From Chiloscyllium plagiosum (lineage: Eukaryota): 64,000 bases of DNA. The stretch is from contig NC_057722.1 in assembly GCF_004010195.1 (NCBI RefSeq), positions 43,036,229-43,100,228 of the forward strand, in the 5' to 3' direction. The notes beneath the pieces were generated by a model. That model ran no database searches and was not told where the DNA came from. It was given only the letters and a program-made list of their open reading frames with translations. Shown one piece after another: positions 4,243-60,626 of the stretch; position 1 is the first letter of the stretch, and each line of letters starts with the position of its first letter. The translations under genes were made by a program, and so were the position numbers.

Positions 4243-4733
4243 GCTGAAAATGTGTTGCTGGAAAAGTGCAGCAGGTCAGGCAGCATCCAAGGAGCAGGAG
4301 AATCGACGTTTCAGGCATGAGCCCTTCTTCAGGAATGAGGAAAGTGTGTCCAGCAGGCTAAGATAAAAGGTAGGGAGGAGAGACTTGGGGGAGGGGCATT
4401 GGAAATGCANNNNNNNNNNNNNNNNNNNNNNNNNNNNNNNNNNNNNNNNNNNNNNNNNNNNNNNNNNNNNNNNNNNNNNNNNNNNNNNNNNNNNNNNNNN
4501 NNNNNNNNNNNNNNNNNNNNNNNNNNNNNNNNNNNNNNNNNNNNNNNNNNNNNNNNNNNNNNNNNNNNNNNNNNNNNNNNNNNNNNNNNNNNNNNNNNNN
4601 NNNNNNNNNNNNNNNGGGAGGTGTGGGCGCAAGTTTTGCATTTCCTGTGGTTGCAGGGGAAGGTGCCGGGAGTGGAGGTTGGGTTGGTGGGGTTGTGGAC
4701 CTGATGAGGGAGTCACGGAGGGAGTGGTCTTTT
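4243..4733 (-). mobile_element. Penelope-like element 3' portion (Cys motif, pLTR with hammerhead motif) spanning the gap
   Basis: Minus strand 4620-4700 encodes ...TSTPGTFPCNHRKCKTCAHTS, the PLE Cys-rich linker before GIY-YIG. 4243-4336 is the same pLTR sequence as the palindromic insertions. Confidence 0.85.
4410..4615. other. Assembly gap (206 N)
   Basis: Run of N inside the PLE copy. Confidence 1.
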
Positions 4734-4803
4734 CAGAGCCTCGATTACCTGCAATAGATAGTAATTCTTGTTCAGCACAGAAACCTGGTCATGATTTTTA
4801 TTA

Positions 4804-5011
4804 GAGCTGAAAATGTGTTGCTGGAAAAGTGCAGCAGGTCAGGCAGCATCCAAGGAACAGGAGAATCGACGTTTCGGGCATGAGCCCTTCTTCAGGCTTA
4901 TGCCGAAACGTCGATTCTCCTGTTCCTTGGATGTTGCCTGACCTGCTGCGCTTTTCCAGCAACACATTTTCAGCTCTGATCTCCAGCATCTGCAGTCCTC
5001 ACTTTCTCCTC
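4804..5011. mobile_element. Palindromic PLE pLTR insertion A with 14-bp TSD
   Basis: Inverted arms. TSD catgatttttatta at 4790-4803 and 5012-5025. Confidence 0.92.
4868..4895 (-). ncRNA. Minimal hammerhead ribozyme motif (PLE type)
   Basis: Minus strand reads CUGAAGA-A-GGGC(UCAU)GCCC-GAAAC-GUC. Confidence 0.75.
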
Positions 5012-5353
5012 CATGATTTTTATTAACCTGGGTCTGAAAGTTAAATAAATTGGGGAATCTTTATGTATTTAGTTTAAAATCTGCAACTTTCATGATGAGT
5101 CTGGGAGCAGCAGGGCTTGATTCTAGTGTAGTATCACAGTGAATCACAACAGGGCCAGTTACTGGATGACAGAACTACATTTTACACTGCCACATGGCAA
5201 ACAGTACACAATTCTTTCCAGTCTTTGACTAATAAGTGAGTGCAGGTGGGCCACAAGTGGAAAGACAGAAACACGGTTCATAGATATTAGTACTCCACTT
5301 CCAGCCCTTCCACTGCTGGACATTTATTCAGAATTGAGATGAGTTGAACATGA

Positions 5354-7559: not shown

Positions 7560-8885
7560 CACAAGACCATGAGACTTAGGCAGTAGAAAGCCATTCAGCT
7601 CATTGAATCTTGTCTACCAGTCAATGATTTGATGAGCCTCAACTCTACTTTCTTGCCTTTCCCCTTTCTTGATTTCCTCTATATCTATCTCAGCCTTGAA
7701 TACACTTAATGGCCCAATGGCATCTGCAATAAAGAATTCCACAGATTCAGATGGCACCAAAATTGAAGGTGTAGTGGACAGCGAAGACGGTTACCTCAGA
7801 TTACAGTAGGAACTTGATCAGATGAGCCAAAGGGCTGGGAAGTGGCAGATGGAGTTTAATTTAGATAAATGCGAGGTGCTACATTTTGAGAAAGCAAATC
7901 TTAGCAGGACTTATACACTTAATGGTAAGGTCATAGGGAGTGTTGCTGAACAAAGAGACCTTGGGAGTGTAGGTTCATAGCTCCTTGAAAGTGGAGTCGC
8001 AGGTAGACAGGATAATGAAGAAGGTATTTGGTATGCTTTCATTTATTGGTCAGAGTATTGAGTACAAGAGTTGGGAGGTCATGTTGCGGCTGTATAGGAC
8101 ATTAGTAAGGCCACTTTTGGAGTATTGCATGCAATTCTGGTCTCCTTCCTATTGGAAGGATGTTGTGAAACTTGAAAGGCTTAAGAAAAGATTTACAAGA
8201 ATGTTGCTAGGGTTGGAGGATTTGAGCTATAGGGAGAGGTTGAATAGGCTGGGGATATTTTCCCTGAAGCGTCCGAGGCTAAGTGGTGATCTTATAGAGT
8301 TTTATATAATTGTGAGGGGCATGGGTAGGATAAATAGACAAAGTCTCTTCCCTGGGGTGGGGGAGTCCAGAACTAGAGACTATAGGTTTAGGGTGAGAGA
8401 GGAAAGATATAAAAGAGACCTAAGGGGAAACCTTTTCATGCAGAGGGTGGTAAGTGTATGGAATGAGCTGCCAGAAGAAGTGGTGGACACTAGTACAATT
8501 GCAACATTTAAAAGGCATCTGGATGGATATATGAATAGGAAGGGTTTGGAGTGATATGGACCAGGTGCTGGTAGGTGGGACTAGATTGGATTGGGATATC
8601 TGGTCGGCTTGGACGAGTTGGACTAAAGTGTCTGGTTCCGTGCTGTACATCTCTGTGACTCTGAGAAGAAATTGTACTTCATCTCTTTTAAATGGGTGAC
8701 ATTTTAGTCTGAGGTCATGTCCTTTGGTTCTAGACTCTACTATGAGGAAAATCAACTTCTGAGCATCTTCTTTGTCAAGCCATCTAAAAAACATAGATGT
8801 TTGAACAAGATTGTCTGTCATTCTTCTGAATTCCAGTAAGTACAGGGCCAATCTACTCAACCTCCCCTCATAAGAAAATCCCTCA
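7560..8885 (-). mobile_element. Old CR1 3' fragment interrupted by a younger CR1
   Basis: 8664-8885 minus gives ...RLALYLLEFRRMTDNLVQT...ESRTKGHDLRLK. 7560-7746 continues with the C-terminus and 3' UTR. Confidence 0.7.
7747..8663 (+). mobile_element. 5'-truncated CR1 LINE (RT end, ORF2 C-terminus, 3' UTR)
   Basis: ORF 7985-8554 contains LYRTLVRPLLEYCMQFWSP...QRVVSVWNELP, preceded by (A)DGTKIEGVVDS and WQMEFNLDKC. The 3' UTR ends ...tctctgtgactct. Confidence 0.95.
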
Positions 8886-9755: not shown

Positions 9756-12313
9756 AACAAAACGTGCATTTGCATACACATGTTTTTGAGGAAAAAAATC
9801 TCATTAGAAATTTGACTCTTTCTCACCACTCACTTCTCACCTCTGAATACTTAAAGCTAGTAAACCAAACAAAATTAAATCACCATTACTTCAAAACTGC
9901 TAACCCACAATTAGAAATAGAAAAATATAGTACAGAATTAACATTCTTGTGTTCTCATTTTGGCAAAGTTGGCTTCAATAATGTACTCTGATGCTTACTA
10001 ATACATCCGGTGCAAAGCAGCCCATAATGATAAGAGACAAACCTGGCTGCAGCCCAGCATACCATAGATAAGTTTCATGTAGCACCAGCTTTCAGAAAAA
10101 TAATGAAAAGAATGAAGCATGTTGAATAATATTCACAGTAGCAGAGAAAGGCTGACGCCACCAAGGAAGTGATGATTAACAGATCTAGGTAAACCATCTG
10201 AAACACTTCACCTTTTTTGATTCTTGAACCAGAAGTGTAGAATATTTCAAATTGTTATGGCTCTGAACTATCTTAGTTTAGCACAGTGTTACAACTTATC
10301 ATCTTTCAATTGTCAGATTTTCCTTTTTATTTCCTTCCTTCCTGTAAATCCAAATTAATGAAAAACAAAAGTGCCCAATTCATCCATGCAACTACAAGGT
10401 AATGAATTACATGCACAATGGAACTGACGTTCTTAAGGAACATGTATTATAAATCATTCAACAACATCAAAAATCTGCTCCATTGTTATTGCTCAGAAAG
10501 GTTGTGACAGAGCAGTTACAATCTGGCAAACCATTACATATAGCAGTTTTATTATAACCATGAAATATGAGACTTCTAGAATCATGAAGTAAAATCTTTG
10601 TAATGACTTGCCATACTGTAATATTTTCATAGAAAGGTGAGAAAGTGCGAATACAGAAATGGTCATTAGAATCCATGAGGCCCATCCCACTGTCCTTACA
10701 TATAGCATATAAAGCAAACTGCTCTAATGCATCCCTGAAAGATGATGAAACATACCAAACTTTTTGAGAGCTTATTTTGCCATATTGTCAGATTCCAATG
10801 AGTGCATCATAGTTCATACAACCATTTTTTAAAAAAATTAGCATATTGATGTGGCTAAAGTTCCCATTTGTGTGCTCTCCAGCATACAATCTATTTGTCC
10901 AATGAAATATTTAATAGGAAAATGGAAGAAAAAAAATCAAAAGCTCCAAATGGAATCTTGACAGTCATGAACTGATTTACCCAGGAAATAAACAACTAAC
11001 AAAATAGGCACAAACTTTTAACCTTCAATATAAAATAACCTGAAAAATAGAAGTGTATATTCAGAAGGGAACGCAACACAAGTGAACGTTATAAAGTGCA
11101 ATGATGCATCAGAACTGGCCTTTTTGAAATCCTTTGCTGAAGTTCTATGTGAAAGCTGCCTACATTTTCTTTTATTCATTGGTGGGACTTGGGCGTCACT
11201 GGCTGGCCAGCACTGATAGCCCATCCCTATTTGCCCTTGAGAAGTTGGTGGTGAACTGCCTTCTTGAATCGTTGCAGTCCACTTGCTGTGAGTTGACCGA
11301 CAATGCCAGTAGGGAGAGAATTCCAGGATTTTGACCACCATCTGTGAAGGAACGGTGGCATATTTCTAAGTCAGGGCGATGAGTAGCTTGGAGGGGAACT
11401 TGCAGGTGGTAATGTTCCCAAGTACCTACTGCCCTTGTCCTTCTAGATGGAAGTGGTCATGGGTTTGGAAGGTGTTGACGAAGAAATTTTGGTGAATTTT
11501 TGCAGTGCATCTTGTAGAGAGTACACACTGCTACTACTGAGCGTTTGTGGTGGAGTGATTGATTGTTTGTAGTTGTGGTGCCAATCAAGCAGATTGCTTT
11601 GTCCTGGATGGTATCAAGCTGCTTGAGTGTTGTTGGAGCTGCATCTATCCGGGCAAGTGGAGAGAATTCCATTACATTCCTGACTTGTGCCTTGTAGATG
11701 GTGGATAGACTTTGGCGTGTCAAGAGGTGAGTTACTCACCACAGTAGTAGTCTCTGACCTGCTGTTATGACACTGTGTTGATGTGCTGAGTCCAGCTGAA
11801 TTTCTGGTCAATGGTAACCCTAAGGATGTTGACAGTGGGAGATTCAGTGATGGTATTACCATGAAATGTCAAGGGGCAGTGGTTAGAGTGTCTCTTATTG
11901 GTGATAGTCATTGTCTGACATTTGTGTGGCACAAATGTTACTTGCTACTTGTTGACCCAAGCCTGGGTATTGTCCAGATCTTGATGCATTTGAGCACAGA
12001 CTGCTTCAGTATCTGAGGAGTTGCGAATTGTTCTGAACACTGTACAATCATCGGTGAACATCCCCACTTCTGACCTTATGACAGAGGAAAGGCCATTGAT
12101 GAAGCAGTTGAAGATTGTTGGGCCCCTAGGACATTACCCTGAGGGAGTCCTGCAGAGATGTCCTGGAGCTGAGATGACTGAACCTCAACAGCCACAACTG
12201 CAACCAACTTCCTTTGTGCCAGGTATGAGTCTAACCAGTGGAGTGCTTGCCCCCTGCCACTGATTGACTTCAGTTTTGCCAGGGCTCCTTTATGCCATAC
12301 TTGGTCAAATGTG

Positions 12314-12511
12314 AGCTGAAAATGTGTTGCTGGAAAAGCGCAGCAGGTCAGGCAGCATCCAAGGAACAGGAGAATCGACGTTTCGGGCATAAGCCCTTCT
12401 TATGCCCGAAATGTCGATTCTCCTGTTCCTTGGATGCTGCCTGACCTGCTGCGCTTTTCCAGCAACACATTTTCAGCTCTGATCTCCAGCATCTGCAGTC
12501 CTCACTTTCTC
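12314..12511. mobile_element. Palindromic PLE pLTR insertion B with 14-bp TSD, nested in LINE-B RT
   Basis: TSD cttggtcaaatgtg at 12300-12313 and 12512-12525. The arms are inverted and both CUGAnGA cores are lost at the apex. Confidence 0.93.
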
Positions 12512-13045
12512 CTTGGTCAAATGTGGCCTTGATGTCAAGGGCTGTCACTCTCACCTCACCTCTGGAATTCAGTTGTTTTGTCCATGTTTGAACCAAGGTT
12601 GTAATGAGATCAGGAGTTGAGTGACCCTGGTGAAACCCAAACTTGGTGTCACTAAGCAGGTGCTGCTTGGTAGCACTGTTGGTGACCCCTTCCATCACTT
12701 TACTGATGATGGAGAGTAGACTGATTGGATGGTAATTGGCCAGGTTGGATTTGTCCTGCATTTTGTGTACAAGACATACCTTGGCAACTTTCCACATCGT
12801 CAGATAGATGCCAGTGTTGTAACTGTACTGGAAGAGCTCGGTTAGGGGAGCAGCAAGTTCTGGAGTCCACATCTTCAGTATCATTGTCCGAATGTTATCA
12901 GGGCCCATTGCCTATGCAGTGTCCAGTCTCTCAGTCATTTCTTGATATTGCGTGGAGTGAATCAAATTGGCTGGAGATTGGTATCTGTGATGCTGGAACG
13001 ACTGGATGAGCCTGAGATGGATCATCCACTCGGTACATCTGACTG

Positions 13046-14415
13046 ACAAAAAAATGAAACCAGACAGACTACCTGGCATCGACTTTGGAACTGGAAAAGA
13101 CAATGGCAAAAACACAAACAGCCCTGTCGACCATGCAAAGTCCTCCTTACCGACATCTGGGGGCTAATGCCAAAAATGGGAGAAGTGTCTTGTCTTTTGC
13201 ACTGGTGTGTTGGACTCCTCCATCTTTGAGGATGGGAATATTTGTGGAGTCTGCTCCTTCAGTAGTTGTTTAATTGTCCATCATCAATTACGGCTGGATG
13301 TGGAAGGACTGCAGAGATTAGGTCTAATCCATTAGTTGTAGGATCACTTAGCTCTGCGTATCACTTGCTGTTTATGCCGTTTGGCACATATGTATTCCTG
13401 TTAGGCAGCTTCGCCAGGTGACACCTTATTTTTAGGTATGCCTGATGCTGCTCCTAGCATGCTCTCCTGCACTCTCCATTGAACCAGGGTTGATCTCCTG
13501 GCTTGATAGTAATGGTTGAGTGGGGAATATGCTGGGCCATGAGGTTGCAGAATGTGCTGAAGTACAGTTCTGCTACTGTTGATGGCCCACAGCATCTCAC
13601 GGATGCCCAGTCTCGAACTGCTAGATCGGTTCGAAGTCTGTCCCATCTAGCACAGTGATAGTGCCAAACAACACGATGGAGGTTATTCTCAATGTAAAGG
13701 CGGAACTTCATCTCCACAAGGACAGTGCAGTGGTCACTTTTACCTATACTGTCATGGACAGATGCTTTTGCAATCGGTAGATTAGTAAGAATGAGGTCAA
13801 GTATATTTTTCCCTTGTTGGTTCCTTCACCATCTGCCGCAGATCCAATCCAGCAGTTATATCCTTTAGGACCCTCCCAGATCAATCAGTAATGCTGCTGC
13901 TGAGCCACTCTTGGTAGTGGGCATTGAATCCACCTAACCAGAGTACATTTTGTGCCCTTGCCAACCTCAGTGCTTCCTCTAAGTGTTGTTCAACATGGAG
14001 GAGTACTGTTTCATCAGCTGAAGGAGGACAGTACATGGCAACCAATAGGAGGTTTCCTTGCCCATGTTTAACCTGACCACATGAAATTTCAAGGACTCTC
14101 AGGGCAACTACCTCCCAATTGTATACCCCTGTGCCACCAGCTATGCTGGGTCTGTCCTACCAGTGGGACAAGACATATCCAGGGATCGTAATGGTGGTAT
14201 CTGGGGCATTATCAGTAAGGTATGATTCTATAAGAATGACAATGTCAGGCTGTTGCTTGACCAGTCTGTGAGACACTTCTCCCATTTTTGGCATTAGCCC
14301 CCAGATGTCGGTAAGGAGGACTTTGCATGGTCGACAGGGCTGTTTGTGTTTTTGCCATTGTCTTTTCCAGTTCCAAAGTCGATGCCAGGTAGTCTGTCTG
14401 GTTTCATTTTTTTGT
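13046..14415. repeat. Perfect 145-bp inverted repeat (13046-13190 / 14271-14415)
   Basis: Base-by-base reverse complement with no mismatch found by eye. Confidence 0.92.
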
Positions 14416-15489: not shown

Positions 15490-17050
15490 GAACAAAGAAC
15501 AAAGAAAATCTACAGCCTAGGAAAAGGCCCTTCGGCCCTCCAAGCCTGAGCCGATCCAAATGTACTGTCTAAACCTGCTGGTCAATTCCTAAACATCTGT
15601 ATCCCTCTACTCCTCACCTACTCATGAAATTATGCAGACACATCTTAAATGACTCTACCGTGCCTGCCTCTACCACCTCTGCTGGCAATGTGTTCCAAAT
15701 GCCCACCACCCTCTGTGTGAAGTACTTGCTGCATGTATCCCCCTTAAACTTTCCACCTCTCACCTTGAAAGTGTGACCTTGCGTTCTTGAATCCTTCAGC
15801 CTGGGAAAAAGCTTGTCTCTAGCCACCCTGTCTATACTCGTCGGAATTTTATAAACCTCAATCAGGTCCCCCCTCAATCTCCTTTTTTCTAATGAAAATA
15901 AACCCAACCTACTCAACCTTACTTCATAGCTAGCACCTTCCATACCAGGCAACATCTTCATAAACCTTCTCTGCATCCTCGCCAAAGCGTCCACATCCTT
16001 TTGGTAATGTGGCAACCAGAATTGTACACAGTATTCTAAATGTGCCCGAACCAATGTCTTGTATAATGTTAACATGATTTGCTAGCTCTTATACTCAATA
16101 CCCCGCCCAATGAAGGCAAGCATACTATATGCCTTCTTGACCACTCTATCCACCTGTCCAGCAACCTTCAGGGTACAATGGACCTGCACTCCCAAATCTC
16201 TCTGCCCATCAACTTTTCCCAAGGCTCTTCCGTTCTTTGTATAATTCGCTCTGGAATTAGACTTGCCTAAATGCATCACCTCACATTTGTCTGGATTGAA
16301 AACCATCTGCCACTTTTCCACCCAACTCTCCAGTGTATCTATATCCTCCTGTATTCTCTGACAGTCCCTTATGCTTTCTGCTACTCCATCAATCTTTGTG
16401 TCACCTGCAAACTTGCTGACGTACCAACAGTGCCCTCTTCCAGATCGTTTATGTATATTACAAGCAACAGTGGTCCCAGCACTGACCCCTGTGGAACACC
16501 ACTGGCACCTTACTCCATTTTGAGAAACTCTCTTCAACTATTACTTTCTGTCTCCTGTTTCTCAAGCAGTTCTTTATCCACCAAGCTGGAACACCCTGTA
16601 CGCCATATGACTTCACTTTCTCCATTAGTTTACCAAGGGGAACCTTATCAAATACCTTATTAACATCCATGTATATGACATCAACAGCCCTTCCTTTATC
16701 TATCAACTTGGTCACTTCCTCAAAGAACTCTATTAATTTAGTAAGGCACGATCTCCCCCGCACAAACCATGTTGCCTATCACTGATAAGCCCATTCTTTT
16801 CTAAATATAAATAGATCCTATCCCTCCATATCTTCTCCAGCAACTTTCCCACCACCGATGTCAGGCTCACTGGTCTGTAGTTACCCGGAATATCCCTACT
16901 ACCCTTCTTGTACAGGGGACAACATGAGCAACCCTCCAGTCCATCAGCACCTCACCTGTATTTAAGGATGCCACAAAGATATCTGTCAGGACCTCAGCTA
17001 TTTCCTCTCTCGCCTCCCTCAGCAACCTGGGATAGATTTGTCCACCTTAA
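15490..17050 (-). mobile_element. 5'-truncated CR1 LINE (RT to 3' tail)
   Basis: ORFs contain GRSCLTKLIEFFEEVT, SKFAGDTKI, WQMVFNPDKCEVMH and LYKTLVRAHLEYCVQFW. Tail (aacaaag)2 at 15491-15504 on the plus strand. Confidence 0.95.
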
Positions 17051-17052
17051 TA

Positions 17053-17250
17053 TGCAGGTACAGTTATGCAGGTACAGTTACAGCATTTAAAAGACATTTG
17101 GGCAGGTACATGAATAGGAAAGCATTAGAGGGATATGGGCCAAATGCAGGCTGATGGAACTAGTTTAGTTTGGTTTAGTTTGGAAACAAGGTCGGCATGG
17201 ATGTGTTGGACCTAAGGGTCTGGTTCTGTGCTGTATAACTTTATGCTATG
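17053..17250 (+). mobile_element. Short CR1 3' end
   Basis: GTVTAFKRHLGRYMNRKALEGYGPNAG followed by a CR1 3' UTR. Confidence 0.8.
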
Positions 17251-17634
17251 AAGATAGAAGTTTACCGAGTTTCTGATAATGCAAGTGTAGGTGTTAAAAG
17301 TCAGAAAAATGGTGAACTATGTTTCAGTATTTATAAATAGGGGATAAAAAAATGGTAAATCCAATAAGGAACTTTTCAGAGACTTGAGATAATTCTGTGC
17401 CCATGGAGAAATTTCAGTTTGCCTGACAATCAGCAACCACATTAGCCATCTTTTAATGTTCAACTTAAAAGATAAGACCATTCCAGAAAATTTTATATGA
17501 AATACGGTCCACAGTTTAAAGTTATAAATGTGATATGCCTTTACTAGGCATGATAATGGTGTAATGATGGGAGGACAGATAGGTGTGGAGAGCAGATTCA
17601 TTCTGCATGAAGCTACTGCCATCTCCTTCAGCAG

Positions 17635-17853
17635 GGAGAAAGTGAGGACTGCAGATGCTAGGGATCAGAGCTGAAAAATGTGTTGCTGGAAAAGCACAGC
17701 AGGTCAGGCAGCATCCACGGAGCAGGAGAATCGACGTTTCGGGCATAAGCCCTTCTTCAGGAATTCCTGAAGAAGGGCTTATGCCTGAAACATCGATTCT
17801 CCTGCTCCTTGGATGCTGCCTGACCTGCTGCGCTTTTCCAGCAACACATTTTT
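17635..17853. mobile_element. Palindromic PLE pLTR insertion C with 15-bp TSD (1 mismatch) and hammerhead motifs on both strands
   Basis: Palindrome centred on GAATTC at 17761-17766. TSD catctccttcagcag (17620-17634) versus catctccctcagcag (17854-17868). Confidence 0.93.
17733..17760 (-). ncRNA. Minimal hammerhead ribozyme motif
   Basis: Minus strand CUGAAGA-A-GGGC(UUAU)GCCC-GAAAC-GUC. The mirror copy on + at 17767-17794 carries two CpG-decay changes. Confidence 0.75.
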
Positions 17854-18194
17854 CATCTCCCTCAGCAGCACTTCAACAATCCTACTAATTCATTTGGGAA
17901 TTGATTAATGGATTTCATGGACACTTTTCAAGCCACATGTTGTAATCCACAGTCATGAAGTAGCAGTCAGAGCCTACAAGATAGCAAGCTGATCTTACAT
18001 ATCTTCAATCTGGCTTCATGCTGCAGTATTCAGACATTGATTTGGTTTCAGCTTGTACTACCATGGAAAGAGCAACATTGACCTTCATAGGTTGCATCAT
18101 GCTTGGATGTTAATGGAGTTGATCATCATTTGTATAATGAAGAGGAAAAGTTCAACCACCGTGCACAGCACTGTATGAGTTACTCAGGTATTTA

Positions 18195-20953: not shown

Positions 20954-21242
20954 TAAATTACTTACAGTGTGGAAACAGGCTCTTCGGCCCAACAAGTCCA
21001 CACCGACCCACCGAAGCGTAACCCACCCATTCACCCCTTTTACCTAACACTATGGGCAATTTAGCATGGCCAATTCACCTGACGTGCACATCTTTGGACG
21101 TGGGAGGAAACCGGAGCACCCGGAGGAAACCCACGCAGACAATGTGCAAACTCCACAAAGTCAGTCGCCTGAATCGGGAATTGAACCCAGGTCTCTGGCG
21201 CTGTGAGGCAGCAGTGCTAACCACTGTGCCACCGTGCCACCC
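20954..21242 (-). mobile_element. HE1-like V-SINE
   Basis: A/B boxes (tggcacagtgg; gggttcaattccc), V-domain and CR1-like tail on the minus strand. Confidence 0.92.
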
Positions 21243-21621
21243 AAGGTTAGCAAGGTTAGATCTCAATGAGAAGCCTTCTGCTTGCATTGATTTTTTTTTT
21301 AACTAGCCATCAATTTATGCTGAGTAAATATGCTAGCCATTAGTTCTCTTATTTGCAGCTTTTCTTCCTTATCTATTTATTGCAATAATGCCTCACATTG
21401 TTCACCACAACTATTTAGGAAAAGATGTCATGTTTAGTAAAGTGATTTCCTGAATGGTTTACCTGCCTATTTGAATATTTATTAAAGTTCTCATTACTAA
21501 AACTGAAAAATAAAAGTATTTGCTCTTTGCATTCTAATTTTTTTCATGTTATGCGGAAATTCCATCTTATTTTGTAATTTGAATATTGCTCTGGCAGATT
21601 GCAGTTTCATCCAATTAACAA

Positions 21622-24408: not shown

Positions 24409-25586
24409 TGCATTCGAGCCAGTCTTAATACCAGAAACTTGGCTGTTCGTGCTACATTCCTCTGAGAATCCATCACCCCTTACATTTTCTAAAACAGCAT
24501 ACCTGTTGAAATGGGTATAGCCACAGAAGGTTCCTGCACTAGCTGCCCACCTCTCTTACCTTTCCTGGACTTAACCCATCTGTGTGAGTGTTTCTGAGAC
24601 TCTCCCCCCTTCCTATAACTGCCATCCATCACATACTGTTGCTGTTGCAAATTTCTCATTGCTTCTAACTGTCTCTCCAACCGATCCATTCGATCTGATA
24701 AGATTCACAACCAACAGCATTTATCTCAGATATAATCCGCAGTAACCCCTAAAGTCTCTTTAAACTCCCACATCTGTTAAGAAGCGCATATTACTCTTCT
24801 AAAGGCCATTTTTGCTCCTTCACAACCTACAGATTTATTCCTCTACAAAACACTGTCCCAGGTTAAATTAATAGTTACGGCTTATATTTTAAGTTTAATC
24901 AAGAGACATATCTCAAAAAACATATAATTCAAGAAAGAACCCACTCTACTCACTACTGCACACTTTCTGTAGGTCACACTTAAACACAATACACTTATCT
25001 GCTTCTGTGCTGTGAACTTTGCCAAAACAGTTCCTCCAAGATCCGTTGTGAATTTCACTGTTTGTTCATTTTCCCAAGCGCACTTCGATGTCCAGTGATA
25101 CATGAATTCAAACAGCAAAGGCAGTAACTGCACAGGTTCACTGCTGTGTCAGTTTCTCTCTCTCTCTCTCCAGCACTGTCCTCTTCATGTGCTTCCTTTG
25201 TTCTTCTTCCTTTTAAAACTGTTATTGTTTTGATTTTTTTTCCCCAAAGTTCCAAAATAATGCAACAGTATATAAAACAGTAATTGCCGCTCCTGGAACT
25301 CAAGGAAATCACCTCCAGCACCTAAAATGCCTCAAAAAAGGAGCAACTTTACAGCCAGAAATTTTCCCCATCCTCCATTATGTATTACCCAGAATCTTGC
25401 GTGGTGAAAAATTCAAAATCAATGCATTGTTCAAACAAAGAAAAGTTGCCTGCATTTTAGTGCTAAAAATTATTTCCTAAAGTATTCTTATTCTCAGAAA
25501 ATTTATGTTACCAATTTGTATATATCTACCATGAATTATTATGCTTTTTCTTTTCCAAATGATAAAACATGATGTTATACATGTTT

Positions 25587-25868
25587 TAGATTAGATTACT
25601 TCCAGTGTGGAAACAGCCCCTTCAGCCCAACAAGTCCACACCAACCCTCTGAAGAGCAACCCACCCAGACCCATTCCCCTACATGGCCAATTCACCTAAC
25701 CTGCACATTTTTGGACTGTGGGAGGAAACCAGAGTACCAGGAGGAAACCCATGCAGACACAGGGAGAATGTGCAAACTCCACACAGTCAGTCGCCCGAGG
25801 GTGGAATTGAACCTGGGTCTCTGGCACTGTGAGGCAGCAATGCTAACCACTGTGCCACCATGCTACCC
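25587..25868 (-). mobile_element. HE1-like V-SINE
   Basis: SINE consensus match with a (tagat)n tail and a possible TSD catgtt (25580-25585 / 25869-25874). Confidence 0.92.
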
Positions 25869-26171
25869 CATGTTGTTGTTTTCTGGTTTTCTGGTTTTCT
25901 GGCGGTTTATGTATCTTCACAGTGATGATGTATGAATCTGCATGAATACATGTTTCTCCTGTGTATAAATATTCCTAAAAACTTAACAACATTTAACCCA
26001 CCCAAAAGATAGACTGTTGTTAAGTTCCAAACCTTATTATCAATAGTAAGTGTCCAAGCAGAATGGAGACCAAAATTAGTAGCCAAAGAATTTGACTCTT
26101 TTTGTTTCTTTTCTTTTTGTGGTACATTTTTCCTGATTGTCATCCTTTGATTTTTACACCAAAAAGGCTTG

Positions 26172-33434: not shown

Positions 33435-33746
33435 GGGGCGGCACGGTGGCACAGTGGTTAGCACTGTTGCCTCACAGCGCCAGAGACCCGGGTTCAATTC
33501 CCGCCTCAGGCGACTGACTGTGTGGAGTTTGCACATTCTCCCCGTGTCTGCATGGGTTTCCTCCGGGTGCTCCGGTTTCCTCCCACAGTCCAAAGATGTG
33601 CAGGTCAGGTGAATTGGCCATGCTAAATTGCCAGTAGTGTTAGGTAAGGGGTAGATGTAGGGGTATGGGTGGGATGCGCTTCAGCGGGTCGGTGTGGACT
33701 TGTTGGGCCGAAGGGCCTGTTTCCACACTGTAAGTAATCTAATCTA
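33435..33746 (+). mobile_element. HE1-like tRNA-derived V-SINE, young and full length
   Basis: A box tggcacagtgg, B box ggttcaattcc, V-domain tgtggagtttgcacattctccccgtg...ggtttcctccggg, CR1-shared tail and (taatc)n end. Confidence 0.95.
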
Positions 33747-34589
33747 GTATATTTAGTGTTTCTTGGTCAGCACGGATATAGTGGGCTGTAATGATGCTGT
33801 ATGACCCAATATAAGGCATCAGCATATTATCCAGTGTTAATTGGGGTCTGTACAAGCATGCAGTAAAGAATGATTTTTGTTCCTTAAGTTGCAAGGTAGG
33901 AATCCAGGTATAATGTATTTTTGGACATGCACACTCTGTATGCAGCTGTCAATGTTCCATGCCATCAGCACACCAGGAAAATTGAAGTCTAATAACTTAT
34001 GATAAAATACTCTTATCTGATTCATACTGGGAACAGTGGGACTGCTCATCCTCTCCCTACCAGTAATCTTCAGATTGAGGAAATTCAAGTGGTGCATTAC
34101 TCTTAGCTTCAGTTGTTGTCTTCTAAGACATCCATGTGCTGGCAGTTATGCTGTTTGCTGAGGCTGGTGTTGATCATTCTCCAAATCATGCTCTATCCAA
34201 AACAATACTGCAAGAATGGTACCTATAATGAGCAGACAAAGCTTATACTGGGACAACAAATTTAAATAACAACAAAGAGGAGTAATGTTCTACTCACAAA
34301 TCAAACAGTTGAAGAGTCTGTGGTCCAATAGAGTGCCCCAACATCCAGCCATGTGTTCTCAAAAACTTTTGATTGTAAGACTGAGACCAGATGGGACATC
34401 CATGATTTAGAGTTAAAACGTAATAACGTCAGAATGTTTCTTCAACGTTTTAATTAGCAGTAGATGGTAGGGATTGATGGGCACAGGGTAGGGGGTAGGA
34501 TGAGGTTGTGGGAACCGTGATGATAGAAAACAATGCTGGAAAGTTGTAGGAAATCTCCAGATTTAGCAATGATTTAATCAGTCAATAAC

Positions 34590-34899
34590 TATCACCTTCA
34601 TCCCCACCCCCATTCACCCATTGTACTCTTTGCTACCTTCCCCACTCTCCTCTCTGACCTATCACCTCCATCCCCACCCCCACTCACTTATTATACTCTT
34701 TTCTACTTTATCCCCACCCCCATCCCCCTCTCATTTATCTCTCCACTCTGCAGGCACCCTGCCTCTATTCCTGATGAAGGGCTTTTGCCCGAAACGTCGA
34801 TTTTCCTGCTCCTCGGATGCTGCCTGACCTGCTGTGCTTTTCCAGCACCACTATAATCTAGACTCTGGTTTCCAGCATCTACAGCCCTTGTTTTTACCA
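34590..34899 (+). mobile_element. PLE 3' end (second subfamily) with pLTR
   Basis: Pyrimidine-rich PLE 3' region followed by a pLTR homologous to insertions A-D. Confidence 0.85.
34771..34798 (+). ncRNA. Minimal hammerhead ribozyme motif with canonical CUGAUGA
   Basis: CUGAUGA-A-GGGC(UUUU)GCCC-GAAAC-GUC. Confidence 0.8.
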
Positions 34900-39552: not shown

Positions 39553-39877
39553 TTAGATTAGATTAGATTACTTACAGTGTGGAAACAGGCCCTTCGGCCC
39601 AATAAGTCCACACCGACCTTCCAAAGGAGCAACCCACCCAGACCCATTCCCCTACATTTACCCCTTCACCTAACACTACGGGCAATTTAGCATGGCCAAT
39701 TCACCTAACCTGCACATTTTTGGACTGTGGGAGGAAACCGGAGTACCCGGAGGAAACCCATGCAGACACGGGGAGAATGTGCAAACTCCACACAGACAGT
39801 TGCCTGAGGCAGGAATTGAACCCGGGTCTCTGGCACTGTGAGGCAGCAGTGCTCACCACTGATCCACCATGCCGCCC
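39553..39877 (-). mobile_element. HE1-like V-SINE
   Basis: Full-length match with a (tagat)3 tail. Confidence 0.93.
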
Positions 39878-41689
39878 ATTTTCTCAAATGTTTTCTGCTG
39901 TGCTAATAACCTTCCATTTGCCCCTTTATCAGTGTTGTCTGGGAGCTTTGGTAAACTGCTCATAACCCATTGTTGCCACAAATAAATACTACAATTAGCT
40001 GTGGGATGTTCTGACAGAGGTAGACTGGAAACCTTGCTAGTGTGAACCAATGAACATTTATTAACTATTTCCAGAGATCAGCAGGGATCCATTGGAATCT
40101 TTTTCCCTCAAATCCCAGTTCCAAGTGATCTGACATTATCTGACATCACTGAGTCACTTCAGCTATTAGCTCAACTATTAATTGCACAGACAACTATTTT
40201 TTATCTCAAAAACTAATTGCAGAAGTGTATTCCATTGGCTCAATTGTGCAAAGATGTTTCTCCTGTTCTCTGTTCTAAATGTCTTACAATTAAACTTAGA
40301 ACTTAAATATTGTTACTTTATAAAGAGCGACATAAGGAGTGCATGAACTCCAGCTGTACAAAAGGCTTGCATTAACATCTGAACTTTTAATGATCATTTT
40401 GTCCAAACCAAGAAATAAAATGCAAACTAATTATGGCAGGGTATACCGGCACACTGTTGATTGTCATTAAATTGCTCAAAAAAGGTTTATTTCTCCATTT
40501 TAATAGTGGATCAATCACATGTGAAATCTTCATTGCAAGTTTTAATTTAGGATAATTGGTTTACAATTAAAACAAGCTAGTGACGAACAAAAACCCATGT
40601 TCATCACCTGTGTTGTAGTTGATGGCACAGCAGTCAATAGGATTAATCATTGTCTGCAGCTTGGTTAATGTTTCTTTTGTCTTATTTTGTTTACTTTTTG
40701 CTTCAACATTCTGTATTTTTCTTCCTTTTTCCTTATTTGTTTTACTTCTTGGATACATCTGCTTTTCTCTTGGGAAAATAAAGGAAACAGGAGACCATTA
40801 TGCAAGTCATGCTATCTCGCAACTGCATCTGTTGAAAAAATTACCCCAAAAATGTTTATTCAATATGCCTTCCAATTTCTATTCCAGTTTATAGAAATAT
40901 AAAACAAATACAAGTTTTTTTATAAAATGTTTGTAATTTGGGGCTCCAAACACATAATAGCTAGTGTGAAACTTGATTATTATTGGGATTTAGTTCTCCT
41001 GCTACCAAATGCTGAGAAAACAAAGCCAGCTATTGAAAAACATGAATTCTTTAAAACTGAAAACTTTTTTATCTTAAATATTATAAATCTTGAAAACTGC
41101 ATTCTTACCTGTCATGGTTGCATTGTAAGCATTATTTTCATGTGTCATATACAATTGGTACACCTGACTTCCTCAGTTGACTAGTCTTGACGTGGATATT
41201 AAATTTGGTGACAATCGAGTTCCCTGTGAGGAAGCTTACAACATTGCTCTGGGGTAATAAACCTCTCGCTTCTCATTTCTCAAGCTGGTGGGACCATCAT
41301 TGAAGAGAATTACAAATATATTTATAACATTATAATATTCCCATGAAATCAACAAACTGTCTCTGCATTTAAAATATAACTTGCGTTAATTTGTCATTTG
41401 TAGTGCAAAGCTGGAATGGTGTGAGGCTATCTAAGAGAGGTAATCGCTTTACTGTGCTTGGAAGTTAAAGCGTAAACTAGACTCTGGAGTTATGCTGCTA
41501 TTTTCATTAACATTTCAACAGACAGGTAAATGGTTCAGCCAAAGCAAAGCATGATTTTATATGTTTTGGTCAAGAAAACACACTTTACATCAAAAATTCA
41601 TTTTTGAATCTACTGGCTAAAAAGCTTGAATTAATTTTGTTTTAGGAAATAAACAAAACTCCAGCAATTCAATTTTTAAAAAATACATT

Positions 41690-42016: not shown

Positions 42017-42139
42017 TGATATTCCAGTGATTTGAACATACCCTCGCATATGAATACACAATTTGTATCTCTGTACTGTCCAAATTCCAGCATCTAACCT
42101 ATCTTCAAAATACAACCAAAGAAGCCTACCAAGTGAATT

Positions 42140-42362
42140 GGAGACAGTAAGGACTGCAAATGTTGGAAACCAGATGTGAAGCTGGAAAAGCACGCAATCA
42201 GACAGCATTCGAGGAGCAGGAAAGTCAATATTTCAGGCCGAAACACTTTGTCAGGACTGGGGAAGGGGAGGCAGCCTGGAAGTATATCGAGGGAATGGGT
42301 GGGGCTGGGGGAAGGGTAGGTGGGATGGTGATAGGTAGATGTCAAGGAGCAGGATAGTCAAC
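42140..42362 (-). mobile_element. Older PLE 3' end with degenerate pLTR and possible 14-bp TSD
   Basis: pLTR homology (ggactgcaaatgttgga...ctggaaaagcac...gaggagcagga). Flanks are gcctaccaagtgaa (42124-42137) and gcctatgaagtgaa (42366-42379). Confidence 0.75.
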
Positions 42363-44599: not shown

Positions 44600-46250
44600 A
44601 AGCCACTAGGGAGTAAATTCAGTAGCAGAACTTCATAGACACTAATACAGGATTGCTACCTGAGTCATGATCAAATTGGCATTGAGCACATAATATTAGA
44701 GAGTTAATTAAATGGTTAAATATTGGTGTAGAAGAAGGGGGTTTTGATTTGTGGGACACTGGCACCAATACTGGGAAAATTTGGATCCATACCATTTGGA
44801 TTGTCTTCATTTGAAACATGCTGAGAAAGTGTTCTAGTGAGGTGGATATCTATAGAGGCATTGAAAGGCAAACTAAATAATAGAGCAGAAGTATCAAGTT
44901 TGGGCATGTGATAAATTGAACACAGAAAATAATGTAAAAGAGCACAGTAGCAATATGAGAAATAATGATCAGAATGTGGCAGGGAGTAACAGAATGTGCA
45001 ACTCTAAGACTGCTGCAACAGAAAATAAGACAAAATAAGAAATAAGGCCCAGTATCTGAATACACAATGCACTTGTGAGAAAACAGATGAATTAACAGCA
45101 CAAATAGAAATAAATAAACATGATATGATAACCATTACAAAGATATTGTTGTAAGCAGCCAAAGATGAATATTTTAAAGTACATAATATGTAGAATGGAT
45201 TGGAAGCTTAGAAAGAGATAAGGTAGCTCTATTAATTAAGGACAATAGAGAAAGGACTTTAAGTTCTGGTGTAGAATCAGTTGTTTTAGAGATGAGAAAT
45301 AACACAAATTGGGAGTTTCTGGTGGGAAGGGTATATAGGCTTCTAAGCTAACCAGGGAGAAATAATAGAACCTTGTAAGAAATGTAAGGCAATGATCATG
45401 ATAATTTTAATTTACATAAAGGGTGAACAAGTTAGATCACCAAAAGTATCCTGAATGATAAGTTCATGGAATGTTTTCATGTTAGTTTCCTAAAACAGCA
45501 CTGTGAACTAGAAAGCAGCCCATAGAAGATTGGATAATTGAAATGAAGCAGATTTATTAATGACTTAATAGTGAAGCCACCCTGAGGACACAATTTGAGG
45601 GAAAGAGCAGTGAATCTGAGAATAATGCTTTAACATGAATAAGAACAATTGTAAATTATGAGGGCATGAAGACACAGCCAACTGTTGTGAACTGAGAAAT
45701 TAGGTTATGGGACAGGCCAATAGAGTTGTGGTGGCCGATGTTAGAAGTATTCTAGAATACTCACAGAGTGTTTTTCTTTAGTTTTCCTACAGTGTGGAAA
45801 CAGGCCCTTCAGCTCAACATGTCCACACCAACCCTCTGAAGAGTAACCCACCCAGACCCATTTCCTTCTGACTAATGCACCTAACACTATGGGCAATTTA
45901 GCATGGCCAATTCACCTGACCTGCACATCTTTGGACTGTGGGAGGAAACCGGAGCACCCAGAGGAAACCCACGCAAACATGGGGAGAATGTGCAAATTCT
46001 ACACTGACAGTCACCCAAGGCTAGAATCGAACTTGGGACCCTGGTGCTGTGAGGCAGCAGTGCTAACAACTGAGCTACCGTGCCAAAATGCACAGAAGGA
46101 AGAAATGTACCATCTGTGGCTAACTAAGAGGGAAAAGATAGTGTTGATAGCTGAAAGAGAAAAAGTATATAATTCTAACAAGATGAGTAGTAAATCCAAA
46201 AACTGGATGTAAATAAAATGCATGGAAAAATGTGGTTATGCAGCTTTAAC
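44600..46250 (+). mobile_element. Highly decayed CR1 (ORF1 end and APE region), interrupted by a SINE
   Basis: WCRRRGF*FVGHWHQYW..., YLNT...KTDELTAQIEINKHDMITIT. Confidence 0.65.
45779..46085 (-). mobile_element. HE1-like V-SINE
   Basis: SINE consensus match. Confidence 0.92.
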
Positions 46251-46310
46251 ATCAGGATTCATAAGAAACAGAGTTGTTGTTAGAATGACTGATGAGCCTT
46301 TGTCAAATGT

Positions 46311-47367
46311 CATAGAATCATAGAGATGAACAGCATGGAAACAGACCCTTTGGTCCAACTAGTCCATGCCGACCAGATGTCCCAACCTAATCTAGTCCCA
46401 TTTGCCAGCATTTGACACGTAGCCCTCTAAACCCTTCCTATTCTTATACCCATCCAAAAACCTTTTAAATGTTGCAATTGTATGAGCCTCCATTACTTCC
46501 TCTGGCAGCTCATTCCATACATGCACCACCCTCTGCATGAAAATGTTGCCCCTTAGGTCTCTTTTATATCTTTCCCCTCTCACCATAAACCTATGCCCTC
46601 TGGTTCTGGACTCCTTGACCCCAGGGAAAAGACCTTGTCTATTTATCCTATCCATGCCCCTCATGATTTCATAAACCTCTATGAGGTCCCCCCTCAGCCT
46701 TCGACACTCCAGGGAAAACAGCCCCAGCTTATTCAACTTCTCCCTATAGCTCAAAACCTCCAACCCTGGCAACATCCTTCTAAATCTTTTCTGAACCCTT
46801 TCAAGTTTCACAATCTACCTCTGATAGGAAGGAGACCAGAATTGCATGCAATATTCCAACAGTGGCCTAACCAATGTCCCGTACAGTCACAACATGACCT
46901 CAACTCCCGTACTCAATGCTCTAACCAATAAAAGAAAGCATACCAAATGCCTTCTTCCTATCTCCCTGTGACTCTACTTTCAAGGAGCTATGAACTTGCA
47001 CTCTAAGGTGTCTTTGTTCAGCAACACTCTCCAGGACCTTATCATTAAGTAGAAGTCCTGCTAAGATTTGCTTTCCCAAAATGCAGCATCTCAAATTTAT
47101 CTAAATTAAACTCCATCTGCCACTCCTCAGCCCATTGGCCTATCTGATCAAAATCCCATTGTAATCGGAGGTAACATTCTTCACTGTCCACTACACTTTC
47201 AATTTTGGTGTCATTTGCAAACTTACTAACTGTACCTCTTGTGTTCACATCCAAATCATTTATATAAATGACAAAAAGTAATGGAACCAGCACTGATCCT
47301 TGTGGCACACCACTGGTCACAGGCCTCCAGTCTGAAAAACAACCCTCCACCACCACCCTCTGTCTTC
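46311..47367 (-). mobile_element. 5'-truncated CR1 LINE
   Basis: VTSGVPQGSVLVPLLFVIYINDLD...SKFANDTKI, and KLERVQKRF...QRVVHVWNELP. Confidence 0.95.
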
Positions 47368-48954: not shown

Positions 48955-49308
48955 TGGGTGACATGGTGACTCAGAGGTTAGCATTGCTGCCTCACAGTGC
49001 CTGGGACCTGGGTTCAATCCCAGCCTCGGGTGACTGCCTGTGTGGAGTTTGCACATTCTCCCTGTGTCTACATGGGTTTTTTCTGGGTACTCCGGTTTCC
49101 TCCAACAGTCCAAAGATGTGCAGGTTAGGTGAATTGACCTAGCTATATTGCCCATAATGTTCAGGAATTTGTAGGTTAGGTGCATTAGTCAGGGGTAAGT
49201 GTAGAATAATAAGGTAGGGTAATGGATCAGGGTGGGTTACTCTTCAGAGGTTCCATGTGGACTTGTTGGGCCGAATGGCCTGTTTCCACACTGTAGGGAT
49301 TCTATGAA
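48955..49308 (+). mobile_element. HE1-like V-SINE
   Basis: A/B boxes, V-domain and CR1-like tail. Confidence 0.92.
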
Positions 49309-54500: not shown

Positions 54501-55014
54501 GGTTGGGAAGCCCATTATTCCAACTTTAATGACCTGCAGCTTTTAACAGCTTGACTCCTTTAAAAACAATTCTATCAGATTCTGGTTCATGGGCAGTCTG
54601 GTGCAGGATTGATGAAGTCTGCCAAACACAACAGCAGCTGCAGTCTAGATAGGTAGACAGATAGGGCAAGAGAGAGATCATGAGCACTATCATGATAATG
54701 TTACAGGGAGGGTAAAGCAGAGCAACAGTTCAAATACCATCATGTTAGCTGTTGAAACTTGTATTCTGTAAATGAATAAATCTGGAATCTGAGCTAGTTA
54801 CAGTAATGATGGTAATAAAATGATTGTACTATTGTTAAAACCCCCCTGGTTCATAAATGTCTTTAGGTGAAAGAGATTTGTCACCATTATCTGGTTCAGG
54901 TTACATGTTACTCTAGACCCCCAGAATGTGATTGACTTTTTAATGCCCTCTGTAATGAACAAACAAACCATTCAGCTGTAAGAAACTGCTACAAAGAGGT
55001 CAAAAATAAATAAA

Positions 55015-55184
55015 GCAGGAGAATCGACGTTTCGGGCATGAGCCCTTCTTCAGGAATGGCGTGAAGAAGGGCTCATGCCCGAAACGTCGATTCTCCTGCT
55101 CCTTGGATGCTGTCTGACCTGCTGTGCTTTTCCAGCAACACATTTTCAGCTCTGATCTCCAGCATCTGCAGTCCTCACTTTCTC
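55015..55184. mobile_element. Palindromic PLE pLTR insertion D with 14-bp TSD
   Basis: TSD caaaaataaataaa at 55001-55014 and 55185-55198. A short inverted arm (about 43 bp) precedes the full arm. Confidence 0.92.
55026..55053 (-). ncRNA. Minimal hammerhead ribozyme motif
   Basis: Minus strand CUGAAGA-A-GGGC(UCAU)GCCC-GAAAC-GUC. The plus-strand mirror at 55061-55088 lacks only the first C. Confidence 0.75.
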
Positions 55185-55633
55185 CAAAAATAAATAAAAC
55201 CAAACATAAAACCTGTATTGACCTAGACACTTGAAAAGGACAATGGCACATCTTGTAACAGAGAACTCTGTAAAATCCTCTTCAGTAATATCTGGGGGCT
55301 TGTGTCAAAACTGGGAAAGCTATCATACAAACGAATGAAGTAGCAAACTGATAATAGTCATACTCACCATATCAATCAGTCAACCAGACTCCTCCATCAC
55401 CAGCCTTGGGTTTTTCCTCTCCCACCAGCAGGACACAATCACCAGAAGTGGTCGCACACTGTTATACAGCTGAGTGTGTGTTACCGCTCCTTGACAGCTC
55501 ATAGAATCAAGTCAAATATTAGAAAGAAAATCTCCTGCTGATTACCACCTGCACCCTCCCTAAACTAATAAATCAACACTTCTCCACAATGAACACAAAT
55601 TGAAAGAAGCACTGAAGGTAGCAAAGGTACCTT

Positions 55634-59949: not shown

Positions 59950-60320
59950 TAGAGTCATAGAGATGTACAGCATGGAAACAGATCCTTCAGTCCAACCCGT
60001 CCATGCCAACCAGCTATCCCAACCCAATCTAGTCCCACCTGCCAGCACCCGGCCCATATCCGTCCAAATCCTTCCTATTCATATACCCGTCCAAATGCTT
60101 TTTAAATGTTGCAATTGTACCATCCTCCACCACTTCCTCTGGCAGCTCATTCCATACATGTACCACCTTCTGTGTGAAAAAGTTGCCCCTTAGGTCTGTT
60201 TTATATCTTTCCCTTCTCAACCTAAACCTATGCCCTGTAGTTCTAAATTTTCTGATGCCAGGAAAAAGACTTTGTCTATTTATCCTATCCATGCCCCTTA
60301 TAATTTTGTAAACCTCTATA
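59950..60320 (-). mobile_element. CR1 3' end
   Basis: GHRFRLRRERYKTDLRGNFFTQKVVHVWNELP plus 3' UTR. Confidence 0.93.
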
Positions 60321-60626
60321 ATTCATGGGATGAGGGTGTTAGTGGCTAGGCCCTTCTCTAAATGCCTAGAGGGTAGTTAAACGTTAATCACATTGCTGTG
60401 ATTCTGGAGTCACATGTAGGCCAGACCAGGTGAGGATGGCAGTTTCCGTCCCTAAAGGGCATTAGTGGCCCAGATGGGTTTTTCCTGACAATGATCATCA
60501 TTGAACTGTTAATTCCAGGTTTTCCTTGAATTCAAACTCGTTGGAATTTGAACTCAGGTCCTGAGAATACTGCCTGGGTCTCTGGATTAACAGTCCAGTG
60601 ATAATACATTGGACCATTGCCTCCCT
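60321..60626 (-). mobile_element. Deu-domain (SacSINE1-like) SINE
   Basis: Full collinear match to 41690-42016. Confidence 0.85.

Follow-up and report, generated by a model that had tools for sequence, protein, structure and literature searches.

Insertions of endonuclease-bearing Penelope-like elements (PLEs) have been described as head-to-head structures with an inverted, 5'-truncated copy, a tail of 30-40 bp at one end, a target duplication and a palindrome at the junction (PMC8557442, legend to Fig. 2; PMC3846280, for Pen2a_Av; PMC2377424). Inverted pLTRs, one-sided tails and junction palindromes are thus already published (PMC8557442, PMC3846280, PMC2377424, PMC8969392), and their cause is, in the passages of these papers that address it, left open, assigned to antisense self-priming (PMC3846280) or assigned to resolution by the endonuclease. 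The PLE cycle and the origin of the tandem and inverted structures are called undefined and open in PMC8557442.

In Poseidon of Anolis carolinensis (PAc), two internal reverse transcription (RT) start sites bound the tail, which is the span between them, and a hammerhead lies just upstream (PMC11167929). The anole protein, a predicted dimer, cuts and extends both target strands in vitro on an uncleaved RNA template, and the second-strand steps were left untested in this, the only in vitro system (PMC11167929). PAc differs from the element considered here in belonging to the Poseidon clade and not to Neptune, and the passages of that report considered here present no inverted products, no paired use of the two sites and no 5' wall. 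The minimal type I hammerheads of PLE pLTRs are characterized by their core, an extra base after position 9, a G10.1-C11.1 pair, a palindromic ACGU helix III and a short helix I, and dual motifs on opposite strands, 100-700 bp apart, were noted in the same work (PMC4209133).

The insertions reported here, from a shark genome, have the shape of the published PLE insertions and differ in that the whole insertion is often just two pLTR stubs, at ~43 per Mb, both ending at one boundary that we refer to as the wall. A literature search found neither a cap wall nor a paired use of the start sites described, and older reviews and supplements may contain such a description. The original prediction placed the fold-back point of such stubs at the 5' boundary of a hammerhead motif and ascribed it to ribozyme structure or processing; the stubs are a real and very common PLE insertion product, with the hotspot correctly recognized and its cause probably misassigned. 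We propose, at a probability of about 0.6, that these are pLTR stubs of a Neptune-type PLE in which the wall is likely the capped start of the RNA and the two arms likely derive from two separate target-primed reverse transcriptions and not from a fold-back. The pLTR start site would then be the ribozyme's first base, a placement relevant to the role of PLE hammerheads.

Palindromic stubs and their source element

The window, i.e. the whole stretch analysed, comprises 64,000 nt of Chiloscyllium plagiosum DNA and contains four copies, A to D, each a head-to-head pair of a 90-130 nt repeat between target duplications of 13-14 bp. Positions within the pLTR are given as idx, where idx 0 is the first T of (A)TTCCTGAAGA, the core C3 is idx 3 and cleavage is predicted after idx 30. 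The four apex sequences quoted in the original prediction are present in the window.

The centre of copy C lies between 17763 and 17764, and its arms are 95% complementary over 96 nt. The tail-bearing arm (17635-17764, minus strand) extends from idx -1, the inferred RNA start, to idx 128, which is RT start site 2; its outer part (17635-17674, minus strand) is the 40-nt PLE tail, bounded by RT start site 1 at ~idx 88 and by site 2, and is found in one arm only. The tail-less arm (17763-17853, plus strand) runs from idx -1 to ~idx 89, that is, to RT start site 1. At the apex (17763-17764) both arms reach idx -1 and overlap by a self-complementary AT, and the pair is enclosed by a left target duplication at 17620-17633 (plus strand, 14 bp with one mismatch to the right copy) and a right one at 17854-17867 (plus strand).

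Copy A (4790-5025; 14-bp duplications at 4790-4803 and 5012-5025) has a tail-less minus-strand arm reaching idx 2 and a tailed plus-strand arm from idx 12, with loop II reading TCAT in the left arm and TTAT in the right. In copy B (12300-12525; 14-bp duplications at 12300-12313 and 12512-12525) the tail-less minus-strand arm reaches idx 6 and the tailed plus-strand arm begins at idx 14, a complete CUGA core being found in neither. Copy D (55002-55198; 13-bp duplications at 55002-55014 and 55186-55198) combines a short minus-strand arm, idx 42 to -2, with three inserted bases and a tailed plus-strand arm from idx 4. A longer, non-inverted copy of the same family (4243-4737, minus strand), with an internal assembly gap, passes the wall into the 3' UTR and ORF and carries the native initiator-like TCATTCC at 4338-4332, and a non-inverted copy of a second subfamily with a CUGAUGA core (34627-34897, plus strand) extends at least 140 nt upstream of the wall. 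An older copy of a third PLE family (42139-42339, minus strand) has CAGTCC at the initiator-like position and a decayed hammerhead core.

On sequence grounds, the repeat of copies A-D is the pLTR of an endonuclease-bearing PLE, because longer copies join it to a pyrimidine-rich UTR, to broken RT and GIY-YIG coding sequence and to a C-x4-C-x2-C linker. Pieces of RT (YIDD) and GIY-YIG are contiguous with the pLTR in loci L005 and L009, and in L005 the linker is accompanied by a CxxC...H...H (CCHH) motif. The Pfam match to GIY-YIG (E=0.0017) scored below the curated cut-off of the family, and the closest proteins are from sharks (82% identity, to a Chiloscyllium protein), several of them containing RT and GIY-YIG domains. 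Every coding copy found was broken, and none had an intact ORF. Neptune elements are recognized by a CX2-5CxxC linker before GIY-YIG together with CCHH, features shared with Nematis, and Poseidon is described without the linker (PMC8557442); by motif, the present element would be of Neptune type, the same motifs occurring in Nematis. The hallmarks of a pLTR, i.e. partial tandems, an inverted copy and a one-sided tail within the 30-40 bp criterion, are all present, and target duplications flank 39 of 65 sampled pairs (median 15 bp by a permissive count) and none of 300 shuffled flank pairs.

A frame that crosses the pLTR (MLPDLLRFSSNTF...) opens with an ATG at idx 48 (window 17812-17814), which lies downstream of the predicted cut; L086 and L210 downstream of idx 128 may be compared. 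Should this ATG be the start of the ORF, as it may be, both RT start sites would lie inside the ORF, as in the anole element.

The wall of arm ends and a putative capped start

Arm ends were counted in a blind sample of 160 stretches of 10 kb taken at round coordinates from contigs C1-C34 (1.55 Mb without N). The first 30 loci were excluded from all histograms because the query that retrieved them began at the wall and was therefore biased. A first pass gave 236 clusters, including 67 simple head-to-head pairs, and the resulting ~43 per Mb extrapolates to ~150,000 pairs in the 3.56-Gb genome. With subfamily-matched references there were 78 head-to-head pairs; removal of 9 with N at the apex or less than 80% identity left 69, and removal of 4 at locus edges left 65. 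The 129 single-arm copies were reduced to 54 by dropping 75 that had less than 84% identity, belonged to the third family, lay next to N or were too short. Inverted arms of 250-500 bp were found in L006, L009, L018 and L025, and long inversions are undercounted in these figures owing to assembly gaps and an 80-nt pairing limit.

The deeper arm ended within idx -9 to +14 in 58 of the 69 pairs, upstream of this band in 5 and downstream in 6. Among the 186 arms that reached idx 14, 141 stopped at -9 to +14, against ~16% expected from the downstream stop rate (p ~1e-71), and 40 ran on past idx -9. Expressed per nucleotide, the stop rate was 0.128 at idx -5 to -1, 0.075 at 0 to 4, ~0.007 at 15 to 45 and 0.003-0.008 upstream of -10 (248 arms, 21 censored). 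The histogram of breakpoints is hence far from uniform, and the predicted clustering at the 5' edge of the hammerhead holds, whereas the assertion that the fold-back point always maps there does not survive the pairs and arms that end elsewhere. The same boundary appeared in a second subfamily chosen by its distal end (arm ends at idx -7 to 0) and in a third loop variant, in which 20 of 21 opposed pairs had a spacing of 14-44 nt, whose lower end is about the smallest that a single complete arm permits. Raw reads from another run had loose ends at idx -1, 8, 83, 88 and 127-128, and strand-switch joints between idx 10 and -1. Single-arm copies also ended in the band (37 of 54, some keeping a small inverted remnant), and the wall therefore belongs to the template and not to the turn-around.

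We regard it as probable, from the base composition of the junctions, that this wall is the capped start of the element's RNA. The initiator consensus is YYANWYY. A motif of this kind, with its A at idx -1, occurs in all three families and in 6 of 7 reference copies, and a short AT-rich patch is situated ~25-33 nt upstream of that A. Penelope and Chlamys-3 are known to have start sites within their pLTRs (PMC2377424, PMC8557442). In L1 and SVA, an untemplated G is accepted as the signature of a cap that has been copied (PMC4859970), so that the additional G found at the wall points towards an RNA end with a cap. In 16,912 exact copies across the genome, the base before the A at idx -1 was the native C in 12,282, and of the others 2,747 had G, 515 had T and at most 1,368 had A; a non-native G thus preceded the wall in 2,747 of up to 4,630 junctions. 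After removal of 655 junctions explicable by overlap with the partner arm, G made up 53% of the non-native bases, compared with nulls of 29% (genome) and 48% (arm). In symmetric apexes with two middle bases, a G of the cap type stood directly before one arm in all 15 that lacked a native extension (p ~1e-4; 50 of 61 apexes listed), and AA, TT, AT and TA were absent as middle bases among the 50 listed of the 61. Locus L210 begins G|ATTCC and continues past the pLTR into the element body.

Other observations count against this reading. With the native C kept in 12,282 of the 16,912 copies, the wall is a band rather than a single base. The genome-wide control position, idx 17, was swamped by a subfamily with a UAAU loop. 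In the local sample G before the arm end was frequent at other positions too (10 of 32 at idx 10 to 60 and 8 of 20 at 3 to 9, compared with 5 of 11 at -1), in numbers too small to decide. In single-arm copies A before the wall was about as common as G (5 of 7 A-loci and ~9 of 30 G-loci being single-arm), and target preference could add to both bases. No pile-up of molecule starts was seen in the only RNA run covering the element, a poly(A) single-cell library labelled with another species and of the wrong type for such a signal, and a second raw RNA run had no reads on the element. A splice acceptor was rejected as the cause of the wall, families 1 and 2 being without AG there.

Two RT start sites and the origin of the arms

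The outer ends of the arms fall at two sites, ~idx 88 and idx 128, whose separation of 40 nt is the PLE tail. Single-arm copies use site 2 and site 1 equally (28 and 25 of 54), and in 59 of the 65 pairs exactly one arm carries the 40-nt tail. The outer-end classes were tail/site 1 in 49 pairs, tail/short in 10, site 1/site 1 in 3, site 1/short in 2 and tail/tail in a single pair, against 28% tail/tail expected if the sites were used independently as in single-arm copies (p=6e-7); in 12 of the 65 one arm had its outer end at neither site. Of 130 site-2 junctions of family 1, 99 had a T directly after the tail end. This is the base with which the native sequence continues, and it suggests that primer and template pair over a short stretch at the 3' junction.

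In the mechanism that we propose, the enzyme would cut the two target strands ~14-15 bp apart, which is the spacing of the duplication observed, and the 3' end of each cut strand would prime at one of the two internal RT start sites recorded by the outer ends. Both primings would probably take place on one RNA held by a protein dimer. Each reverse transcription would have only 90-130 nt to travel before running off the 5' end of a transcript that is capped, uncleaved and begins at the initiator A, in keeping with the observed wall at about idx -5 to +2 and the extra G, and host end joining would then fuse the two cDNA ends. Overlaps, one-arm trimming and small insertions were all observed at the fusion; by alignment ends, 22 of 69 junctions overlap, 7 are blunt and 40 contain inserted bases. 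Ribozyme cleavage would be needed at no step. Templated insertions are typical of polymerase theta end joining, and the apex insertions in L027, L053, L105, L149, L273 and L291, which are copied from nearby arm sequence, resemble them.

In L1, twin priming starts from a poly(A) primer, and the segments that become inverted are adjacent and do not overlap. That arrangement was not found in the stubs, where the arms duplicate the same stretch; unlike in L1, both cDNAs would copy this stretch from two fixed internal sites, and a duplication results. The likeness would lie in the second target strand priming a second cDNA, which produces the inversion, and in the extra G at the capped end (PMC4859970).

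The alternative that survives best, though we consider it unlikely, is a snap-back at the 5' end of the RNA, in which a single cDNA primed at site 2 would run off the transcript start, fold and be copied to about site 1, with later deletions at the centre creating the asymmetry; the wall would still be a start site. For the PLE palindromes of rotifers, self-priming has been put forward, with an antisense template (PMC3846280). Perfect or near-perfect apexes such as that of copy C fit such an origin, which would also explain one tail per pair without a dimer, and a minority of the pairs fits it in other respects, i.e. the 12 with a short outer end and L311, in which the inverted arm repeats the junction of the other arm and ends at idx -35. 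The nesting of the arms speaks against it as the general route. Snap-back requires the copied arm to be contained in its template. Of 59 pairs, however, 25 had a tail-less arm that was the deeper by at least 10 nt, and 10 a tailed arm that was; in those 25 neither arm contained the other, which snap-back by itself cannot give, although later deletions at the centre could imitate it. The same held in three of the four window copies, A, B and D, in which the tail-less arm likewise reached further 5', by smaller margins, so that a fold-back origin does not hold for most copies. The tail-less arm was deeper equally often among the least diverged pairs (arms differing by 5% or less; by at least 5 nt in 9 of 20, against 8 of 20). 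In L310 the inverted arm continues natively to idx -120, past the junction of the other arm at -71, and in L312 the two arms carry different internal junctions, structures that later deletion at the centre of a perfect palindrome cannot explain. Site 1, moreover, is the normal 3' end of single-arm copies (25 of 54), and is hence a start site and not only a place where copying stops.

The sharing of diagnostic bases between arms, which snap-back would also account for, was put forward in the original prediction as a sign of one template per insertion. Across the sampled pairs this agreement is borne out, only 59 of 508 diagnostic positions being discordant within pairs, close to the 7.5% background and against 42% between insertions, although the loops of copy A differ. 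A single template source per insertion is thus upheld; the agreement reflects a shared source and cannot separate one RNA molecule from two of the same master. Gene conversion was rejected as the cause of the likeness, since the arms are not homogenised (7.5% apart at invariant sites, compared with 9.0% between insertions).

It is improbable that the short arms come from a separate non-coding master of 130 nt, SINE- or retrozyme-like, or from a processed RNA end, mobilised in trans, with the wall being the end of that RNA. The very high copy number of the stubs would suit such a source, as would the preprint account of PLE-derived non-autonomous retrozymes, which concerns tandem units (bioRxiv 10.64898/2026.07.22.740005), and L304 and L314 share an internal junction in both arms, an indication that junction-bearing templates were transcribed. 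Against this, L210 starts at the wall and runs on into the element body, the same subfamily variants occur in long and short arms, and the initiator-like motif is within the pLTR of the coding element itself. The 1.55 Mb contained no short-unit tandem arrays except two-unit partial tandems, and the architecture of non-LTR retrozymes, tandem head-to-tail units each with a hammerhead, was not found, the 78 pairs being head-to-head.

Several structures at individual loci may be recorded here. The same internal junction is present in both inversion arms of L304, L311 and L314, and junction-bearing short derivatives were probably transcribed and mobilised. Inverted arms at L088 (5860-6017), L142 (6120-6271) and L310 begin at site 1, omit 30-60 nt of internal sequence and then continue near the wall. 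In the partial tandems (L301-L314; L210, 1590-1715; L086, 2135-2708) the upstream unit extends to about idx +242 to +263 of the body, where it is followed by a pLTR whose truncation lies between -60 and -90. The end of the upstream unit could mark a third internal RT start region, bearing in mind that the query selected for such ends. In three reads of run X21 (compare L009, 1467-1591), idx 4 leads back to idx 128 through four additional bases; they represent either a head-to-tail repeat or a circle of a 125-nt unit and are too few to weigh.

The hammerhead motif and the remaining explanations

The original prediction identified a Penelope-like pLTR with a minimal type I hammerhead, having an extra A after A9, an ACGU helix III and a weak helix I, and this assignment is retained on the strength of pattern counts and of the published description (PMC4209133). 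A relaxed hammerhead pattern matched 105 times in the blind sample and twice in the reversed sequence, whereas the Rfam scan returned no hammerhead family at E ≤ 1; a search for the ribozyme thus gave a positive answer by pattern only. Seven of the eight weak Rfam matches were miRNA models over the palindromes. The present motifs differ from those described in PMC4209133 in having a helix II of 4 bp and a helix I of three pairs plus a U.U mismatch, where 4-5 base pairs are expected for a minimal type I, and in that the transcript apparently starts with the first base of the motif. Counts for helix I among the 105 motifs were C-G 77, U-A 91, U.U 61 (U-A 14) and A-U 76, followed by C.C 44, and helix III was ACGTC in 64, the remainder being mostly CpG decay. 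A subfamily with a compensatory change in helix II, GAGC...GCUC (L073, 8597-8752; L082, 5459-5669), may be taken as a sign that the ribozyme fold was under selection in master elements.

Copy C has motifs on both strands, as was predicted, and only that on the minus strand (17733-17764) is intact, with the 5' strand of helix I, CUGAAGA, the extra A, helix II as GGGC-UUAU-GCCC, GAAA and ACGU, and a predicted cut after 17733. The plus-strand motif (17763-17794) carries two CpG-type changes, GCCT for GCCC in helix II and ACAT for ACGT in helix III. The back-to-back arrangement arises because a palindrome of this stretch yields it, and the palindrome alone accounts for the pair.

That folding or self-cleavage of the hammerhead sets the point at which RT stops and turns, as originally inferred, now appears very improbable. 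The wall does coincide with the first base of helix I, and helix II pairing is kept across the 105 motifs, a few double changes included. Cleavage predicts ends at idx 31, but no clear peak was seen there among 192 arms, of which 3 end at that position and nearly all read through; at idx 30-33 the same table holds 8 arms against ~4 expected by hand count, which leaves room for a small cleavage-derived class. Folding offers little more, as the helix I described above is short and the monomer folded no better than shuffled sequences (z 0.95, 0.18 and -1.28). A structural block to RT would be expected 3' of helix II rather than immediately beyond the motif, no fold could supply the added G, and the sharing of the wall by single-arm copies and the extra G that points to a cap are both at odds with a ribozyme-directed turn. 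In other systems, ribozyme mutants of the anole element insert normally in vitro (PMC11167929), and Naiad PLEs form inverted structures without hammerheads (PMC8557442). Since the putative start site falls on the first base of helix I, position alone cannot fully separate the fold from the start site.

An artefact of assembly or alignment can practically be dismissed and is already largely refuted: assembly gaps adjoin many long copies and alignments to the wrong subfamily do stop near idx -9, but target duplications accompany the pairs and not the shuffled flanks, the arms differ by decay, subfamily-matched references give the same wall, and the idx 10/-1 strand-switch joints are present in raw reads. 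Contigs of four further runs did not extend over the flanks of copy C.

Separate priming of the two arms from a capped RNA might be extended, tentatively and with slightly more doubt than confidence, to a coordinated double priming general to PLEs, in which a dimer cuts both strands and the two reverse transcriptions start 40 nt apart, from opposite ends of the tail, on one capped, uncleaved RNA, with the hammerhead at the start of the mRNA acting, when it cuts, as a self-decapping switch. If so, inverted pLTRs, one-sided tails and junction palindromes across PLE clades would all follow from one geometry, helix I would double as the initiator, and the hammerhead cut would act outside integration. 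The ~150,000 shark palindromes would be a base-by-base record of the start site. In an in vitro PLE system, a tail should then be found on exactly one arm, the apex should track the 5' end of the RNA, the extra G should appear only with capped RNA and cleavage should be dispensable. Short palindromes at ~43 per Mb are also a large source of hairpin RNA and of false microRNA calls in shark genomes.

The window contains other repeats in addition to the PLE copies. A dispersed repeat of ~300 bp, which we take to be SINE-like by its size, occurs on both strands at 21132-21248, 25578-25874, 33436-33755, 39554-39883, 45769-46094 and 48955-49174. Segments at 8075-8662, 46306-46901, 59943-60321 and 16500-17230 are presumably fragments of a LINE-like repeat, again on both strands. 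A 145-nt inverted repeat (13046-13190 and 14271-14415), 100% complementary with its halves 1,080 nt apart, is either the end pair of a DNA transposon or a feature of the assembly.
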